22,609 nt of DNA from a virus (lineage: Duplodnaviria; Heunggongvirae; Uroviricota; Caudoviricetes): IMG/VR virus record IMGVR_UViG_2639762834_000007. One strand, 5' to 3'. This document shows, one piece after another, positions 1 to 20,834 of the stretch (the stretch's first letter is position 1; each line of letters begins with the position of its first letter). The notes under the pieces are model-generated. The model ran no database searches. It was not told the origin of the DNA and was given only the letters and a program-made list of their open reading frames with translations. The position numbers and the translations under genes are program-made.

Positions 1-1176
1 TCAGTCGCCCTGAACGCCCGCGACAGCGCCGCCGAATAAGGCTTCAGCTCGTCTTCCGGCATCGGGCGCCGCGTCTTTGATCCAGCGTCCGTATCGTTGC
101 TCGATCATCTTCAGGCTGATATGGCCCATCTGGCTAGCAACCCACATCGGCGGTTCGCCGGCCGACAGCATCATACTCGCGTAGGTGTGCCGAGTCTGAT
201 ACGGTCGACGATAGCGCACCGCGGATTTTTCGATGGCGCGGTTCCACGCAAGCCAGATCACGTTGTCGCCGCTCCACGCCTCGCCGGTCCGGGGGTTTAG
301 GAAGATCGAGCCGCCGATAAGCAGAGTGAATCGCTTCTGGTCGTCGAGGGCTGCGAGGGCTGGTTCGAGCAGCTTCACATTGCGCCGACTGCCGCGCGTC
401 TTCGTGTCCTCGACCTTCTTCGCGACGCGAGCAGCTCGCGTCCGGGCACGTTGTACGCGAACGATTCCACGCTTCCAGTCGATGTCGCCCCACTGGAGGG
501 CGATCAGCTCGGACGTTCGCAGGCCAGTCCAGAACGCAAACTGAAACAGATTCCTTTCTTGTCCGGCCATCGCGCCGAGAATCGCGGCCTGCTCCTCCGC
601 GGTGAATGGATCGACATCGTCGTCTCGGCCTGGTGCTTCGTTTCGCTGGTAAGTCCACCCATACAAAACGTTTGTCTCGACGATCTCATCCTGCAAGGCT
701 TCAGCGAGTGCCGCCCGGAAGACCGATAGCACGTTGGTCATGCGCTTATTGCCGAATTTCTGCTTCGCTGCCCATTCGCGCACGTGGGAACGACGTACAT
801 CGGACATCGTGAGGTGGCCGAATGCTGGTTTCAGTGTCCCTTTGATGATTTTCCTGTAACCCTCGATCGTGCTGGCGGCGAGAACATTCTCCTGCCGGTC
901 GAGCCACGTGTCGAGGAACGACTCCACCAGCAGAGCATCGCCTTGCCGTTCGACGAACCGAGCTATCCGTTTCGACTCCGGGAAGGAAACTCGGTAGTCG
1001 AACGTTCCGTTTGCGATCGCGGTGCGAACCGCGCCGAGAAAATTGGCGGCTGCTTTTAGGTTAGCGGGAGTGGGCTCGAGGCGGATGCGCTCGCGACAAC
1101 GGACGCCCTTATAGGTGAAGGTGACTTCGATCGAACTGCCACTAATGGCGCGGACACCCGTGCCGTTTCTACCCAT
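1..1176 (-). CDS. int: Tyrosine integrase with DUF3596-like arm-binding N-terminus
   Basis: GLRTSEL (catalytic R), RPYQTRHT, MGH, terminal Y; SD GAGGGG upstream. Confidence 0.95.
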   Translation of the reverse strand: MGRNGTGVRAISGSSIEVTFTYKGVRCRERIRLEPTPANLKAAANFLGAVRTAIANGTFDYRVSFPESKRIARFVERQGDALLVESFLDTWLDRQENVLAASTIEGYRKIIKGTLKPAFGHLTMSDVRRSHVREWAAKQKFGNKRMTNVLSVFRAALAEALQDEIVETNVLYGWTYQRNEAPGRDDDVDPFTAEEQAAILGAMAGQERNLFQFAFWTGLRTSELIALQWGDIDWKRGIVRVQRARTRAARVAKKVEDTKTRGSRRNVKLLEPALAALDDQKRFTLLIGGSIFLNPRTGEAWSGDNVIWLAWNRAIEKSAVRYRRPYQTRHTYASMMLSAGEPPMWVASQMGHISLKMIEQRYGRWIKDAAPDAGRRAEALFGGAVAGVQGD

Positions 1177-11688: not shown

Positions 11689-11831
11689 GCTGAGTGGTGT
11701 CGGGCGCTACCCCGTTTCTCGGCTACACCGTAGAGCCGACCGGTTGCTCCCTTGCGGGTCCCGGTACGCTGGCACTCTTAAAGATCGATCCGCCGGAGCG
11801 GTGCAGCGAGCAAGGCTGCGGTATGGATCGA

Positions 11832-11871
11832 AGAATAAACAAGAGTTTATCAAGAGTCAACAAAAGTTTGT
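11832..11871 (-). promoter_or_regulatory. pL promoter with operators OL1 (11835-11850) and OL2 (11856-11871)
   Basis: TTGACT-17-TATTCT; perfect ATAAAC-N4-GTTTAT matching OR. Confidence 0.85.
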
Positions 11872-11954
11872 GCCTGTGTGGGAGGGCAAGTTCGACCGCG
11901 TGTGGCGAAGACGCGGATCAGCCTGTAAATTCTTGGGAGGAATTGGACGCAATC

Positions 11955-12848
11955 ATGAAAATTCAACCTCTCCCACCTCTTCAGTGCCTTGTTTTCTTCG
12001 ACGCAGCCGCAAGACACGGCAACTTCACGCGAGCAGCCGAGGAATTGAATGTGACGCAAGGCGCGGTTAGCAAACAGGTTGTGAAGCTCGAGACGTTTCT
12101 TGGGACAACTCTCTTTGTCCGAGATGCCAAGGCCTTGCATTTGACTCGCGCGGGCCAGCAGTACGCTGATCGGGTGCATGCGATTTTGGCCGACTGTGTC
12201 GAGGCAACTGCACTTGTGATGAAGGAGCAGACTCCGCACAGCCTTACTATTGCGTGCGCGTCCGGCACTGCAACATTGTTTTTGGCGGATCGGATTGCCG
12301 AGTTCAGCGCGGAGCATCCGGAAGTCTCCGTGCGAATTCTTGTTCGAGAAGGCGTGTTCAATTTGAACGCGGCCGAATTCGACATTGGCGTCTACTACAT
12401 TCGCGACGTTCCTCCCCCCGGCATTGCTGGAACGGCGATCATCGCGGAGGACGTTCACGCATACTGCGCGCCGACGTTTCTCGCGGGGCGCCGCGTGCCT
12501 CCCCAGGACTTGATGGAGGCAACTTTACTTGTTGCGGAGGAACAGCAGCGTCAGTGGATGGGATGGCGAGATTGGTTTCGCCTGACTGTCGGCGAAATCG
12601 GGTTTCGTCCGGCTCGAACTATTTCTGCGAACAGCTACCCAGTACTGCTGCAACTGGCACTGCATGGGCACGGAGCAATTTTGGGCTGGAAGCATATGAT
12701 CACGCCACTTGTTGAGAGCGGGAAGCTGGTTTTAGCGTCGGATGCGCATGCAAGCTTCGGCGGCGCGTATCAGGTCATCTGGCCTGCGGATCGCCGAGAC
12801 ACGCCCGCGGTCACGATGTTTCGCGAGTGGCTACTGACGCATGTATAA
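11955..12848 (+). CDS. LysR-type regulator, GcvA-like
   Basis: LPPLQCLVFFDAAARHGNFTRAAEELNVTQGAVSKQVVKLE HTH plus substrate-binding domain. Confidence 0.95.
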   Translation: MKIQPLPPLQCLVFFDAAARHGNFTRAAEELNVTQGAVSKQVVKLETFLGTTLFVRDAKALHLTRAGQQYADRVHAILADCVEATALVMKEQTPHSLTIACASGTATLFLADRIAEFSAEHPEVSVRILVREGVFNLNAAEFDIGVYYIRDVPPPGIAGTAIIAEDVHAYCAPTFLAGRRVPPQDLMEATLLVAEEQQRQWMGWRDWFRLTVGEIGFRPARTISANSYPVLLQLALHGHGAILGWKHMITPLVESGKLVLASDAHASFGGAYQVIWPADRRDTPAVTMFREWLLTHV

Positions 12849-13002
12849 GTCATACGATTGGTTCAATTTGCATCATTCCTTATGGTCAGGCTGCCCCGAG
12901 AATTTTTCATAGTAAGTAATTCGTAAATAGACGTAATATTTCGTGCGCGATCAAATCTTGTTTGATAGCCGTAATAACTCAATAATCCGAGGGCACGAAA
13001 TA

Positions 13003-14292
13003 ATGCAAACATCAACGTACGCGCGCGAGGCCGCGCCGAGTGCGAGCTCCGACACGCATCGGAGAGCTGTAATCGCCGTCATCGTCGGAAATGGTTTCGA
13101 ATGGTTCGATTTCATTTCGTATAGTTTCTTCTCAGTCATTATTGCGAAACTATTTTTCCCGTCGACGGACGACAACCTGTCTCTGTTGCTGTCGGTTTCG
13201 ACGATTGGCGTAGGCTTCTTTATGCGTCCGATCGGTGGCATCGTGATTGGCGGAATTGCGGATAAAGTGGGGCGCCGAGCAGCACTTACGGTCACGATTG
13301 CATTGATGACCGCCGGGACGGCGATGATTGGATTCGCGCCGACATACAAAGATGCAGGGCTTGGCGCGCCACTGATGATTGTCGTCGCGCGTCTACTTCA
13401 AGGATTTTCGGCTGGAGGGGAAATGGGAGGTGCGACAGCGTATCTTCGCGAGCGCGTGCCGGCCGAGCGGCATGGATACTACACGAGCTGGATTCAGGCA
13501 AGTATCGGGTTCGCGATTATCCTTGCGTCAGTTCTTGCGGTGTTTATCGTGAAGTGCCTCGATGAGCAGCAGATCGAATCTTGGGGCTGGCGAATCCCCT
13601 TCCTTCTCGGACTCGGTCTCGGCCCGGTCGGGATTTATATCCGCAGTAGGCTGAACGACCCTGGCTTTCCCGCAGACGAGCGTTTGGGCGAGTGTGCGCC
13701 GGTCGTCGAGGTCGTCAGGAGCTTTTCGCGTGAGGCGCTTGTCGGATTTGGTTTAGTCGTCTTCTGGACGGTTTGCTCTTATGTCCTACTGTTCTACATC
13801 CCGACCTACGCTTCGAAGGTTCTGAAACTCCCGTCTTCTACGGGTTTCATCGCAGTGCTTGTCGGCGCGTCAATTGTTCTCTTCGTCACACCTTTGATTG
13901 GACACCTTTCCGATCTGTTTGGGCGCCGCTGGTTCCTTGCGGGAGCGTTGCTCGTTGCGATCGTCGCGGCTTATCCGCTGTTCGCTATGTTGAATGCCGC
14001 ACCAGGGTTGAAGTCGTTGCTCGTGTTCCAGGTGGTGTTCGGGCTCGTTATCGCCAGCTACGAGGGGCCAATCCTGGCGGCGCTTAGCGACATGTTTCCA
14101 GACGGGGTTCTGTCGACTGGGATTTCGATCTCGTACAACCTCGCCGTGATCACGTTTGGTGGATTCTCCGCCGCGATCATTACGTGGGCGATTGCGACCA
14201 CGCACAACAACCTCGCGCCGGCATTCTACGTGATAGCAGCGGCCATCGTGAGCTTGATATCCGTGTCTCTCTGGCAACCTCGCAGGAAGTAG
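13003..14292 (+). CDS. MFS transporter, metabolite:H+ symporter family (ProP/CitA-like)
   Basis: GNGFEWFDF, DKVGRR, RLLQGFSAGGE; multiple TM segments; SD GAGGG. Confidence 0.95.
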   Translation: MQTSTYAREAAPSASSDTHRRAVIAVIVGNGFEWFDFISYSFFSVIIAKLFFPSTDDNLSLLLSVSTIGVGFFMRPIGGIVIGGIADKVGRRAALTVTIALMTAGTAMIGFAPTYKDAGLGAPLMIVVARLLQGFSAGGEMGGATAYLRERVPAERHGYYTSWIQASIGFAIILASVLAVFIVKCLDEQQIESWGWRIPFLLGLGLGPVGIYIRSRLNDPGFPADERLGECAPVVEVVRSFSREALVGFGLVVFWTVCSYVLLFYIPTYASKVLKLPSSTGFIAVLVGASIVLFVTPLIGHLSDLFGRRWFLAGALLVAIVAAYPLFAMLNAAPGLKSLLVFQVVFGLVIASYEGPILAALSDMFPDGVLSTGISISYNLAVITFGGFSAAIITWAIATTHNNLAPAFYVIAAAIVSLISVSLWQPRRK

Positions 14293-16205: not shown

Positions 16206-16646
16206 ATGAACATCATCGACGCCGCATACGCGGTTGTTCACGATTACCCGGGCGGCAGTGAGTCGCTCGCGCCGCGTCTCGGTATGTCGGCGGCGGTGCT
16301 GCGGAACAAGGTGAACCCGAACAACGCTACGCATCACCTCGGGCTTGCTGACGCGGTTCGCGCGACGGACGTGACCAACGACGATCGGATGCTCGAAGCG
16401 TGGGCTGGCGAGCGTGGCTACGCGCTCGTGAAGTTGCCGAGCGCCGTTGACTGCTGCGACGCCGCGATCGTCGAGCTGATGGGCAAGGCGTGGTCGACGC
16501 ACGGCGACGTCGGGCAGGAGATCGTGAAGACGCTCGAAGACGGCCGTGTCGAGCGGCACGAGATCGAGCGCGTGGATCACCGAATCTTCAAGCATGCGCA
16601 GGTGCTTCTCGATATCTCCGCGCGGCTGCGCGGCATGGCCGAGTAG
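16206..16646 (+). CDS. cII: CII-like regulator (186/P2 CII, YmfL type)
   Basis: LAPRLGMSAAVLRNKVNPN...HHL; EDGRVERHE; SD GAGGA. Confidence 0.85.
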   Translation: MNIIDAAYAVVHDYPGGSESLAPRLGMSAAVLRNKVNPNNATHHLGLADAVRATDVTNDDRMLEAWAGERGYALVKLPSAVDCCDAAIVELMGKAWSTHGDVGQEIVKTLEDGRVERHEIERVDHRIFKHAQVLLDISARLRGMAE

Positions 16647-16656
16647 TGGGGAGCGC

Positions 16657-17886
16657 TTGAGTGTCGCCTACTACAACGAGCACGATCAAGTCGCCGCGGA
16701 GTGGCTGCGCAACCTCGTTGCGGCAGGCCACATCGCGCCCGGTGACGTCGACGAACGCGACATCCGCGACGTGCATCCCGACGACCTTCGTCCATACGCC
16801 CAGTGCCATTTCTTCGCAGGCGTCGGCGTCTGGTCCTACGCGCTTCGTCGCGCCGGATGGCCCGACGATCGACCTGTTTGGACGGGTTCCTGTCCGTGCC
16901 AACCTTTCTCCGCGGCAGGCAAAGGACTTGGATTTGATGATGAGCGGCACCTGTGGCCTGCGTGGTACTGGCTCATCGGCGAGCGCCGCCCTGCAATCGT
17001 CTTTGGAGAGCAGGTTGCGAGCTCGGCTGTCGACCCTTGGATCGACCTTGTTCAAGCTGACGTGGAAGCGCTGGACTACGCCTATGGGTGTGTCCCGTTT
17101 CCGTCTGCGGGCGTCGGTGCTCCGCACATCCGCGACCGGGCGTACTGGATGGCCTACGCCTACGGCCGCGCTCGCAGAGAAAGGCGTGCGCACGTTCGAG
17201 AGGGGGCTGATGGAAGCGATGCGCAATCATGGGCCGGATCTGGCGGCAGCGGCATGTCTGGCCGGCTGGCCGACACCGACAGTCGGCAACGCGGAGGGCT
17301 CGCAATCGTTCGAGGGCTTGAGCGCGACGGGCAAGACGCAGGACGGTCGCAAGGTAGCGGTGAGCCTGAATCACGTGGCGCAGTTCGCGGGATGGCCGAC
17401 ACCTACGTCGACGGATTTCAAAGGCGCACCGTCGAAACCGTATTCGGAGCGGGGCGGCGGCAAAAAGGGGATGCGCCTGGACGCAGCGGCACACCACTGG
17501 CTCGCAGGCTGGCCGACACCCACATCAACGGATGCGCTCCGGAATCCGGCTGCGCAGTTCTCGACGACGAACATCGCGTTGAACCACACGGCGGCGCTCC
17601 TGAAGGACAACCCCATGCCGGCTCGACTAACGGCTTCTGGCGAGCTGCTGACTGGCTCCTGTGTCGGGATGGAAAGTGGAGGCCAGTTGAATCCGGCACA
17701 TTCCCGCTGGTTGATGGGTCTGCCGGTCGCATGGGACGAGTGCGCGCCGATCAAGCGCGCCTCGCCGCGCTTCGTCCACGGAAAGACCAAGGCAGCCGCC
17801 AAGGCCGACTCCGAGGGTACGGCAACGCGATCAACGCGGAAGCGGCGGTTGCGTGGATCGAAGCGTGCCGAGGAGTGATCGGATGA
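16657..17886 (+). CDS. C5-cytosine DNA methyltransferase, catalytic (alpha) frame
   Basis: [35 protein letters not shown]; TTG start with SD GGGGAG. Confidence 0.9.
16937..17878 (+). CDS. Overlapping-frame methyltransferase beta/TRD subunit
   Basis: +1 frame open 16661-17878; SD AAAGGA before ATG 16937; four GWPTP units; [13 protein letters not shown] (motif IX-like). Confidence 0.72.
17147..17523 (+). repeat. Four 17-bp GWPTP-coding repeats
   Basis: At 17147, 17264, 17390, 17507; spacing 117/126/117. Confidence 0.9.
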
Positions 17887-19019
17887 ACTGGCTCGATCAA
17901 TCCCACCGCGGAGACTGCCGTGACCTGATGCGCGCGATGATCGCCGACGGCGTGCGTGTGCAGACGATCGTGACGTCGCCGCCGTACTGGGGCCTTCGCT
18001 CGTATCTGCCTGACGGACATCCCGACAAGGGCAGGGAGATCGGCAGCGAGCCGATACTGCGCGAGTTCATCGACACGCTCGTCGGCGTGTTCGAGCTCTG
18101 CCGCCAACTGCTCGTGGACGACGGGACGCTCTGGCTGAACATGGGCGATGCCTATGCCTCATCGGGCGGACAGACGCCGATGCGCGGTGAGACGTTTGCC
18201 GGGCGCGCTCGCGCTAAGGAGAACATCTGCCTGAGCAACAGGAAAGCGGGCATCGACGGTCTGAAGGTCAAGGATCTGATGGGCCAGCCGTGGCGTCTTG
18301 CGTTTGCATTGCAGGATGCCGGCTGGTATCTCCGACAGGACATCATCTGGCACAAGCCGAACCCGATGCCCGAGAGCGTGCGCGACCGCTGCACTAAGGC
18401 ACACGAATATCTGTTTCTGCTTTCGAAGAGCGAGCGCTACTACTACGACTTCCACGCGATGCAGGAGCCTGTGAGCGGTGGTGCTCATGCACGTTCGCCC
18501 GGCAATCGGTCACACAAGGCCACAAATGCATTTGCGGCGGGCGACGAGCATCACCGCACGAAAAGCGGACTCGTCGCGTACGCCGAGCGGCAGCGCGCCG
18601 CGGGCGTCAATCCGAAAGCTGTAGCGGTCGCCGGTTGGCAGACGGGACCGGGCGCACATTCGACTGTCGAGCACAACCGCGGCGCTCGTGCAAAGCGGCA
18701 GAAGCAAAACGAATCGTTCTCGGCAGCCGTCACCGACGTTGTCACGAGTCGAAATCGCCGGAGCGTCTGGACGATCCCGACGCAGTCGTTCGACGGCGCC
18801 CACTTTGCAACTTTCCCCGAGGCGCTCGTCGAACCTTGCGTGCTCGCCGGCAGTCGGCCGGGCGACGTCGTGTTCGATCCGTTCTTCGGCAGCGGCACGA
18901 CCGGACAAGTAGCGCAGCGCCTCGGCCGCCGTTTCATCGGCTGCGAACTCAACCCGGACTATGAGCCGCTGCAGCGCGATCGTCTGCGGCAGCCGGGATT
19001 CGTTTTGGAGGTCATGTGA
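17883..19019 (+). CDS. Beta-class amino-methyltransferase (likely N4-C)
   Basis: TSPPY near N-terminus; DPFFGSGTT near C-terminus. Confidence 0.92.
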
Positions 19020-19978
19020 GCGAGCGCCCAACCCTCCACGTCGTTTCTCTGTCCGGCGGCAAGGACAGTACCGCGACGCTGCTCGTCGCGCTCGAGCTGC
19101 ACGGACACGAGAACGTCCGTGTCGCAATGGCGGATACAGGCAACGAGCACCGTCTTACCTACGAGTATATCGACTATCTCGAAGACGTCCTGTCGATCCC
19201 GGTGGCGCGTCTCAAGCGTGACTTCACTCCCGAGTGGTGGCATCGGCGCGACTACGTTCGCGACAAGTGGCCGGAGAAGGGTGTTCCTGAGAACGTCGTC
19301 CTGCGCGCCTTAGCCGTGTTCGAGCGTGGGCCGACCGGCATCCCCTTCCTCGACCTTTGCATCATCAAGGGGCGCTTCCCGAGCCGCATGGCTCAGTTCT
19401 GCACGTACTTCCTCAAGACTGAGCCTCTGAATGAGTACGCGCTGAACCTGATCGATGAGGCGGGTGTTGCTGTGTGGTCTTGGCAAGGTGTCCGCTTCGA
19501 GGAGAGCGAGGCGCGCCGCAACCGCCTGCAGGGCACAGGGGCATGCGTCCGATCGTTTGAAGAGGTCGGCGGGGGACTGTTCATCTATCGGCCGGTGTTG
19601 CGCTGGACGGCCGAATCCATATTCGAAGCGCACCGCGTAGCCGGTATCAGACCGAACCCGCTCTACCTGCAAGGCCGCAAGCGCGTCGGTTGCCTCTGCA
19701 TCAATGCTGGTAAAGACGAGATCCGGCAATGGGATATGCGTGACCGCGACCACATCGAGATGATCGCCGAGTGGGAAGGCATCGTTTCGGATGCGTCGAA
19801 GCGTGGCAACTCCACCTTCTTCCCGGCCCCAGGCGAGACGGACACGGCGCGGGAGCGAGGAAACATCTGGCAAGTCGTCGAGTGGTCGAAGACGACTCGT
19901 GGCGGTCGGCAATACGACCTTCTCGCGGACGCAGAACCTGCGACGGCATGCTCGTCCGCATACGGGCTCTGCGAATAG
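19016..19978 (+). CDS. PAPS-reductase-family (PP-loop) protein
   Basis: [17 protein letters not shown]...LK, GVRFEES..R, RVGC. Confidence 0.9.
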
Positions 19979-20012
19979 CTCCACACACCAACTATCTCAA
20001 CAGGAGCCACTG

Positions 20013-20834
20013 ATGGCCAAAAACTCAATCGACGTCTACGGGGCGTCGGGCAAGGGCAACGTCCTTTCGATGGACCCTGACAAGCTGACGCTCGTCACGG
20101 ACCCGAAGCACCCGCTGTACGACCGGCGCGTACATCAGGCGCCGAACCAGAAGACGGTTCGGAACTACCGGGCGCAGGGCGTGCTCGAGCCGGTGCTCTT
20201 CTACAAAGACCCGGAGACGGGCGAGAACCTCGTGATCGACGGCCGTCGCCGCGTGATCAACGCGCGCGAGCTGAACCGTCAACTGATCGATGCGGGCGAA
20301 GAGCCGATCACGATTCCAGCGATCCCGAAGCGCGTTATGCGCGACAGCGACAAGTCGTTCGTCGGAATGATGGTCAGCACGAACGAGATCCGCGAAGAAG
20401 ACTCGCCGATCAACCGAGCCGAGAAGATGGCTCGCATGCTCGACGTCGGCCACACCGAGGATGCTATCGCCGTCGCGTTCGGTGTCGAGGTGCCGACCGT
20501 GCGCTCTGCTTTGAAGCTGCTCGACTGCTGCATGGCGGTGCGTGACGCTGTTGAGGCGGAACAGATCACTGTGTCGCACGCGCTGAAGCTTGCGAAGCTG
20601 TCGCCCGACGAGCAACGCGCGAAGGTTCAGGCGTTGATCGATGCCGCTGACGGCAAGGAAGGGCACGCGCGCTCGCGTGCGCAGAAGGCCGTGCTCGGCG
20701 GTTCGGCGGCACGCGTACGTCCGCGTAAGCAGATCGAGGCGGCGCTCGCGGAGGCGACGGGCGAGCGCTTGGCGGCGCTGCGATGGGTGCTCGGTATTGA
20801 CGACGCGGAAAGCGCACAGGAGGCCGCCGAATGA
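20013..20834 (+). CDS. ParB/Srx-like N-terminal domain protein with HTH
   Basis: GVLEPV...VIDGRRR; HTH; SD CAGGAG. Confidence 0.85.
   Translation: MAKNSIDVYGASGKGNVLSMDPDKLTLVTDPKHPLYDRRVHQAPNQKTVRNYRAQGVLEPVLFYKDPETGENLVIDGRRRVINARELNRQLIDAGEEPITIPAIPKRVMRDSDKSFVGMMVSTNEIREEDSPINRAEKMARMLDVGHTEDAIAVAFGVEVPTVRSALKLLDCCMAVRDAVEAEQITVSHALKLAKLSPDEQRAKVQALIDAADGKEGHARSRAQKAVLGGSAARVRPRKQIEAALAEATGERLAALRWVLGIDDAESAQEAAE

Follow-up and report, generated by a model that had tools for sequence, protein, structure and literature searches.

Can the two chains of a single DNA methyltransferase be written one inside the other, in different frames of the same DNA? The question is raised by positions 16657-17886 of a 22,609-nucleotide stretch of viral DNA (IMG/VR record IMGVR_UViG_2639762834_000007, Caudoviricetes), referred to here as the window. 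As the first-pass annotation of this DNA had reported, two plus-strand frames are both open there for about 1.2 kb, one from the TTG at 16657 to a stop codon ending at 17886 (frame A, 409 aa) and the other from 16661 to 17878 (the +1 frame, 405 aa). Frame A encodes alpha, the catalytic subunit of a C5 cytosine DNA methyltransferase, and the +1 frame contains a second open reading frame (ORF), beta, which lies wholly within the alpha gene and has the features of a putative DNA-recognition subunit. Comparison with relatives shows that dual coding at this locus is real and conserved. The two frames most probably specify the nested chains of a two-subunit C5 methyltransferase of the same type as M.EcoHK31I, and here the variable cassette region belongs to the nested subunit.

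When the codons of frame A were permuted among synonyms, the +1 frame of this window came out just as open about 12% of the time (P ~0.12), and the number of stops expected from the alpha residues and the GC-rich codon usage is ~2 in the +1 frame versus ~15 in the +2 frame. Because this single-window test is not significant, the case for dual coding rests on relatives. Searches with either frame (tblastn) returned near full-length matches in Burkholderia, Bordetella, Ralstonia, Pseudomonas, Salmonella (epsilon15), Klebsiella, Xanthomonas, Rhodobacter and cyanobacterial phages, and all 79 IMG/VR loci fetched with frame A have a +1 frame open for ~270-470 codons. These loci were thinned to 51 at <85% alpha identity, and synonymous codons were shuffled region by region. 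The beta frame is stop-free over A codons 81-162 in 51 of 51 loci (16.8 expected) and over A codons 163-318 again in all 51 (19.8 expected), and beta-frame stops in codons 1-80 and 357-409 of the relatives occur at the expected rate. Reciprocally, with the synonymous codons of beta shuffled, alpha is stop-free through its glycine- and arginine-rich middle in 51/51 loci versus 5.2 expected. The 51 loci are related, so that they are not independent trials, and the middle region is near nucleotide saturation. In eight lower-GC relatives (45-62% GC; eps15, SJM3, FoX4, NINP13076, KBG, Tadhana, Delraymugoa and SOVA965) the open +1 frame is individually significant, each at P <= 0.003. The persistence of both frames in homologues, raised at the outset as a check, thus holds throughout the set, including phages of Mycobacterium, Paenibacillus and Stenotrophomonas and T4-like coliphages.

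The distribution of diversity over codon positions indicates which frame is selected where. Alpha codons 1-75 and 371-409 have a third-position diversity of 0.44-0.58 versus 0.1-0.2 at positions 1 and 2, and only alpha appears to be selected there. Third-position diversity is lowered to 0.12-0.36 in alpha codons 81-160, which points to constraint in both frames; the N-domain of beta falls in this part of the gene, with a beta identity excess 4-5 times that of the control region and constrained alpha third positions. In alpha codons 311-356 all three positions are almost frozen, and the segment 17620-17724 has diversities of 0.10-0.22, 0.06-0.12 and 0.04-0.16 at the three codon positions. In the middle of the gene, the most variable position is the alpha first position, which is the third position of beta. 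Because this middle aligns poorly, the test was redone inside homologous cassettes, the repeated units that beta encodes there. Within cassette types, diversity at beta positions 1/2/3 is 0.21/0.16/0.47, and amino-acid identity is 0.70-0.97 in beta versus 0.43-0.59 in alpha; a frame-neutral control, clustered and aligned by DNA, gave 0.25/0.22/0.50. Since the wobble pattern follows beta, also in the frame-neutral control, the variable region is best read as a protein under purifying selection in the beta frame that, in the alpha frame, need only stay open. The alpha filler (residues 171-321; 18% Gly, 15% Arg) shows no conservation as protein. The earlier proposal that the specificity region resides on the overlapping subunit is borne out to the extent that purifying selection acts on the putative region in beta and not in alpha.

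Beta also appears to have its own conserved internal ribosome-binding site and start. The first-pass annotation had pointed to a Shine-Dalgarno sequence (AAAGGA) and repeated WPTP units in the +1 frame; both are present, and the former is kept, together with the start, through biased alpha codons. Specifically, codon choice in the alpha segment GKG.GF(D/A)DE is strongly biased across the 51 relatives: Phe93 is TTT in 50 of 51 (other Phe codons of the same genes are 81% TTC), Lys89 is AAA in 36 and AAG in 2 against a background near 1:1, Gly90 is GGA in 39 of 51 and Gly92 is GGG in 38. The biased codons spell AAAGGAG followed, after six bases, by a +1-frame TTG (48/51) and ATG (34/51). The minimum of alpha third-position diversity falls at this beta start region, and many database beta proteins begin exactly at the conserved ATG. 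Because the +1 frame upstream of 16934 is unprotected, the long 405-aa form is probably not a real product. The alpha TTG at 16657 and the GTG of the long +1 ORF at 16661 are 4 nucleotides apart behind one GGGGAG site, and the first 91 codons of that ORF, which stay open only within the Burkholderia lineage, have an off-frame, low-complexity appearance.

Between its conserved ends, beta carries one to five cassettes of ~30-45 residues, each led by GWPTPT; in the window, the WPTP units lie at 17150, 17267, 17393 and 17510. The 172 cassettes of the 51 loci fall into 21 recurrent types and 45 singletons, and their order varies from locus to locus (A-D-F-B in the window, and A-D-B, C-D-A, C-B-A and E-A-B in L014, L012, L048 and L019, respectively), with close Burkholderia relatives differing by whole cassettes. 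This modularity suggests a role in target recognition. The +1 frame matches phage 'DNA methyltransferase' families (phrog_1008, E 1.8e-40; phrog_31772, E 4.5e-32). The beta product of the window and 50 members of the family matched no relevant Pfam entry, and beta had no match in NCBIfam, none among PDB sequences by phmmer, and only unnamed viral clusters in the ESM Atlas. The conserved C-terminal 44 aa of beta retrieved 234 phage records by tblastn. The likeness of a segment of this C-terminal block (17687-17725) to methyltransferase motif IX, claimed in the first-pass annotation, is one of pattern: the segment is present, resembles RLTPRECARLMGF of Dcm by eye and occupies the canonical place between motifs VIII and X, but neither Pfam nor hhalign against Dcm returned a significant match.

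The alpha chain is a C5 cytosine DNA methyltransferase by family profile, by motifs I, IV, VI, VIII and X and by catalytic fold, without a target-recognition domain (TRD) and motif IX on the same chain. It matches phrog_363 (E 5.6e-77) and PF00145 (E 2.3e-8, 34.3 bits against a cut-off of 22), the latter over profile positions 66-162 only, which comprise motifs IV-VIII. All five motifs and the Arg/Gly-rich middle listed in the first-pass annotation were recovered (Table 1), and no TRD or motif IX was recognised between motifs VIII and X either in the alignment of 50 sequences or in the structural model. AlphaFold2 (AF2) models were built with 50-sequence alignments. In alpha, residues 1-170 are predicted confidently (per-residue confidence, pLDDT, ~90), residues 183-390 as disordered and a terminal helix (394-408) with a pLDDT of 81-87; Foldseek matched the N-domain only, to M.HhaI (E 8e-8, ~168 columns) and other C5 methyltransferases. 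In the beta model only the N-domain is confident (helix 15-34, hairpin 40-62), the conserved C-terminal block is not, and Foldseek found no match in the PDB at E <= 0.001. The nearly invariant alpha segment at 17620-17724 is written over the most conserved beta block.

The nesting extends well beyond the close relatives of the window. Shorter enzymes of enterobacterial and Xanthomonas phages show it, with NP....WLMG.P and a motif of the PTP type both in the +1 frame, as do those of Mycobacterium phage KBG, Paenibacillus phage Tadhana, a T4-like Krischvirus and a Stenotrophomonas phage, so that, judged from these frames, it recurs across phages of Proteobacteria, Actinobacteria and Firmicutes. 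In a wider sample of 75 loci whose enzymes are related to those of KBG and Tadhana, the motif lies in the +1 frame in 59 and in frame in 3, and 13 gave no match to the search pattern, most of these also having a long open +1 frame; the median open stretch in the 75 loci is 236 codons in the +1 frame versus 53 in the +2 frame. Two of the three apparent in-frame cases (L143, L206) are fusions by a 1-nucleotide indel, and the third (L125) was mis-assigned by the script and is really nested. Thus, in this 75-locus sample, the only single-frame relatives with WPTP and the motif IX-like segment in frame with motifs I-VIII were 1-nucleotide indel fusions, to which P0006 is similar. These fusions, which may be functional variants or sequencing errors, run from motifs I-VIII through the PTP cassettes to the motif IX-like block (P0006; L143; L206, 601-1649), and in L206 motif X is encoded separately, by a 108-aa ORF that starts at an ATG of its own. 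In a set of 1.84 billion, a beta profile matched 14,420 cluster representatives at E <= 1e-3, of which 5,422 reached E <= 1e-30, and every beta in the loci examined was accompanied by alpha.

Annotation practice follows the earlier expectation that gene callers would report a single product for most records, which list alpha only, but not for all. The closest GenBank relative, Burkholderia phage vB_E354 (PQ789824, L211; 98-99% identical), annotates only the long +1 ORF (1501-2718), as a 'putative metabolic enzyme', and has no coding sequence (CDS) for the C5 methyltransferase frame. A few records list both frames without comment: phage K1H (GU196278, L084) has a CDS at 604-1428 and a nested one at 692-1384 ('Mte8-like protein'), and Paenibacillus phages list two nested 'DNA-cytosine methyltransferase' CDS (1049-2119 and 1251-1955 in Tadhana, L086). 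The SOVA965 record annotates part of the beta frame. The papers tied to records with both nested CDS leave the overlap uncommented, and we found no open-access paper describing a widespread nested gene; the ShiLan papers deal with another methylase and with an HNH insertion that is out of frame.

Table 1 Features of the nested methyltransferase locus and its flanks (window coordinates).
Feature	Position	Strand	Evidence
Upstream neighbour, phage CII (CP76) regulator	16206-16646	+	PF06892, E 4e-43
GGGGAG, Shine-Dalgarno-like, 3 nt ahead of the alpha TTG 16657	16648-16653	+	Read from sequence
Alpha gene, frame A, 409 aa, C5 methyltransferase catalytic subunit	16657-17886	+	ORF list, PF00145, phrog_363
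Upstream open +1 stretch from GTG 16661, not conserved, probably outside beta	16661-16933	+	+1 stops at the expected rate in A codons 1-80 of relatives; ordinary alpha wobble
Alpha motif I, FFAGVGVWS	16810-16836	+	F53, A54, G55 and W59 invariant (alignment A2)
Alpha motif IV, GSCPCQPFS, catalytic Cys81	16885-16911	+	Invariant in 50 sequences
Internal Shine-Dalgarno AAAGGA for beta (putative), inside alpha GKG	16921-16926	+	Kept as AAAGGAG in relatives
Beta start codons (putative) TTG 16934, ATG 16937 and ATG 16940, +1 frame	16934-16942	+	Conservation in relatives
Beta gene, +1 frame, 314 aa from TTG, putative DNA-recognition subunit	16934-17878	+	phrog_1008 match, alignment A1, beta profile matches
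Beta N-domain, residues 1-72, helix and beta-hairpin, over alpha motifs VI-VIII	16934-17149	+	Many invariant columns; AF2 pLDDT 71-87 (residues 10-62)
Alpha motif VI, FGEQV (ENV variant)	17002-17016	+	G117, E118, Q119 and V120 invariant
Alpha motif VIII, APHIRDR	17119-17139	+	R159, D160 and R161 invariant
Beta cassette array, four GWPTPT-led cassettes, types A-D-F-B	17150-17617	+	Repeats, beta-frame wobble
Alpha filler, residues 171-321, Gly/Arg-rich, predicted disordered	17167-17619	+	Composition; pLDDT <50; stop-free in 51/51 loci
Beta C-terminal conserved domain PARLTASGE...CAP, including the motif IX-like segment 17687-17725	17618-17749	+	Near-invariant block (alignment A1)
Doubly constrained segment, alpha residues 322-356 over the most conserved beta block	17620-17724	+	Both alignments nearly invariant
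Alpha motif X, YGNAI, begins C-terminal helix	17818-17832	+	Y388, G389, N390, A391 and I392 nearly invariant; frame-A third-position wobble
Downstream neighbour, N6/N4 DNA methylase, 34-nt overlap with the alpha 3' end	17853-19019	+	PF01555, E 7e-51

A model that accommodates these trends can be outlined as follows. Alpha would be translated end to end, yielding an S-adenosylmethionine-binding and catalytic domain (motifs I-VIII), a drifting, stop-free and disordered spacer, and the motif X helix that would close the catalytic domain. Beta would be initiated at the internal ribosome-binding site and the TTG/ATG codons at 16934-16940, within the alpha segment GKG.GF(D/A)DE, and its N-domain, exchangeable cassettes and C-terminal motif IX-like block would be the counterpart of the small target-recognition domain of a single-chain enzyme. 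Alpha and beta together would make one C5 cytosine DNA methyltransferase, for which beta would supply the recognition domain. By analogy with M.EcoHK31I, beta probably binds alpha and provides DNA recognition, and the two chains would be expected to form a heterodimer in which both are needed. The enzyme, like the other orphan methylases of this family, which sit in early operons, probably protects phage DNA from restriction.

The closest precedent is M.EcoHK31I (E. coli HK31, YGGCCR; Lee, Kam and Shaw 1995), an alpha/beta C5 methyltransferase that, according to published accounts (PMC2836561, PMC3404938), has its beta wholly in another frame of the alpha gene, motifs I-VIII and X on alpha and motif IX on beta, and requires both chains for methylation. 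Its beta is sizeable, in that removal of up to 67-70 residues from the N-terminus is described there as leaving it usable (PMC2836561, PMC3404938). The present locus resembles M.EcoHK31I in nesting beta in another frame of alpha with what appears to be its own start. It differs in that the TRD of M.EcoHK31I is placed on alpha by these accounts (PMC2836561, PMC3404938), whereas here the variable region is selected in beta, a comparison made with the published description only, and in being an orphan prophage methylase in an early operon and not part of a characterised restriction-modification pair. M.AquI (CYCGRG) is a naturally split two-subunit C5 methyltransferase with a catalytic chain and a chain bearing the distal variable region and late motifs (PMC3404938). 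The locus described here shares with M.AquI the division into a catalytic and a second chain, but the smaller M.AquI subunit has both motifs IX and X, whereas here motif X is on alpha and the genes are nested. The M.AquI genes are not known to overlap at length on the same DNA. In the multispecific C5 methyltransferases of Bacillus phages (M.SPRI, M.Phi3TI and others), motifs VIII and IX are separated by a tandem series of target-recognising modules, each ~40 residues long and exchangeable. The shuffled GWPTPT cassettes, whose target role is putative, resemble these modules in arrangement, although M.SPRI and M.Phi3TI are single polypeptides read in one frame. In the lambda Rz/Rz1 spanin, one gene is likewise wholly embedded in the +1 frame of another and the products form one complex; by contrast, the function of Rz1 is unrelated and the embedded gene is short, compared with an overlap of ~310 codons here.

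Several observations weigh against a nested two-subunit enzyme. The translation of beta and its binding to alpha are both putative, and the open +1 frame of the window is by itself statistically unremarkable. Pfam searches with 50 beta sequences gave no support for motif IX, and hhalign of the beta alignment against E. coli Dcm returned a probability of 0.07, in what is a weak test with a single sequence as template. Beta alone folds poorly in AF2 (mean pLDDT 56), and the conserved alpha segment 322-356 is likewise modelled with low confidence. Finally, the 1-nucleotide indel variants (P0006, L143 and L206) fuse the alpha N-terminus to the beta C-terminus, and other architectures may therefore be viable. 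The lack of a Pfam family, a structural match or a significant profile match to canonical motif IX would suit a beta that is real and separately translated but is not a methyltransferase subunit, for example an independent DNA-binding, anti-restriction or regulatory protein. We consider this unlikely, given that beta never occurs apart from alpha in the loci examined, that alpha has no recognisable TRD or motif IX and carries disordered filler exactly there, that the C-terminal block of beta is motif IX-like and stands in canonical order between motifs VIII and X, and that M.EcoHK31I provides a precedent.

Less probable still is a single chain made by programmed frameshifting, in which the ribosome would follow frame A to motif VIII, shift by +1 for the TRD and motif IX and return by -1 for motif X. 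The composite order (motifs I-VIII, WPTP...motif IX-like, YGNAI) is indeed that of canonical C5 methyltransferases, and the natural indel fusions join the same parts. Yet a -1 slippery heptamer between motifs IX and X occurs in only 2 of the 51 loci and none at the VIII/WPTP junction, and frameshifting leaves unexplained the conserved Shine-Dalgarno sequence and start 70 codons ahead of the first WPTP, the conserved beta N-domain over motifs VI-VIII and the stop-free filler of alpha. The idea that the +1 frame is a by-product of high GC, a frameshifted pseudogene or an assembly error draws on the 12% of shuffles that keep it open in this window, but is very hard to sustain against (near-)identical copies of the locus in independent assemblies (L002-L009), retention of the arrangement at 45-47% GC, a beta-frame wobble that persists with frame-neutral clustering, a conserved beta start and the 14,420 clusters matched by the beta profile. 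This reading is effectively refuted by the comparative data, with no frequent +1 stops in relatives.

Beyond the two-subunit reading, a broader scenario may be envisioned, which we put forward tentatively and hold to be possible rather than probable. The GWPTPT cassettes would be interchangeable target-recognition modules, which phages would re-assort through recombination between the DNA repeats that encode WPTP, thereby altering the methylation specificity or adding further ones; the overlapping part of alpha would be a sequence-blind disordered tether tolerating any cassette set; and the family would have arisen by displacement of an ancestral TRD and motif IX into the other frame, not by de novo overprinting. 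If true, few functional overlaps between same-strand genes known in phages would be as long or as widespread. The overlap spans ~310 codons on the same strand, with two segments that appear constrained in both frames, and is conserved across phages of distant hosts, and the disordered 'shadow' reading illustrates how two proteins can share DNA. The nested arrangement has been demonstrated by experiment once (M.EcoHK31I); it is met again in thousands of phage genes, usually under a wrong annotation. Should specificity reside on the cassette-shuffled nested subunit, methylation patterns relevant to host range could shift by simple recombination. Targeted methylation has been built on split C5 methyltransferases that occur in nature (PMC2836561), and the nested family offers thousands of natural variants for such tools.

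The surroundings of the locus are those of a prophage early region. Alpha begins shortly past the stop codon of the CII (CP76) regulator gene, and the genes on its 3' side are tightly coupled: the N6/N4 methylase (17853-19019) is followed by a PAPS-reductase-family protein (19016-19978) and a ParB-HTH-domain protein (19791-20834). Together, these downstream genes (17853-20834) make up a DNA-modification module. A tyrosine integrase lies on the minus strand at the left end of the window (1-1176), and the prophage immunity region carries a LysR regulator and an MFS transporter (11694-14292), apparently as cargo.

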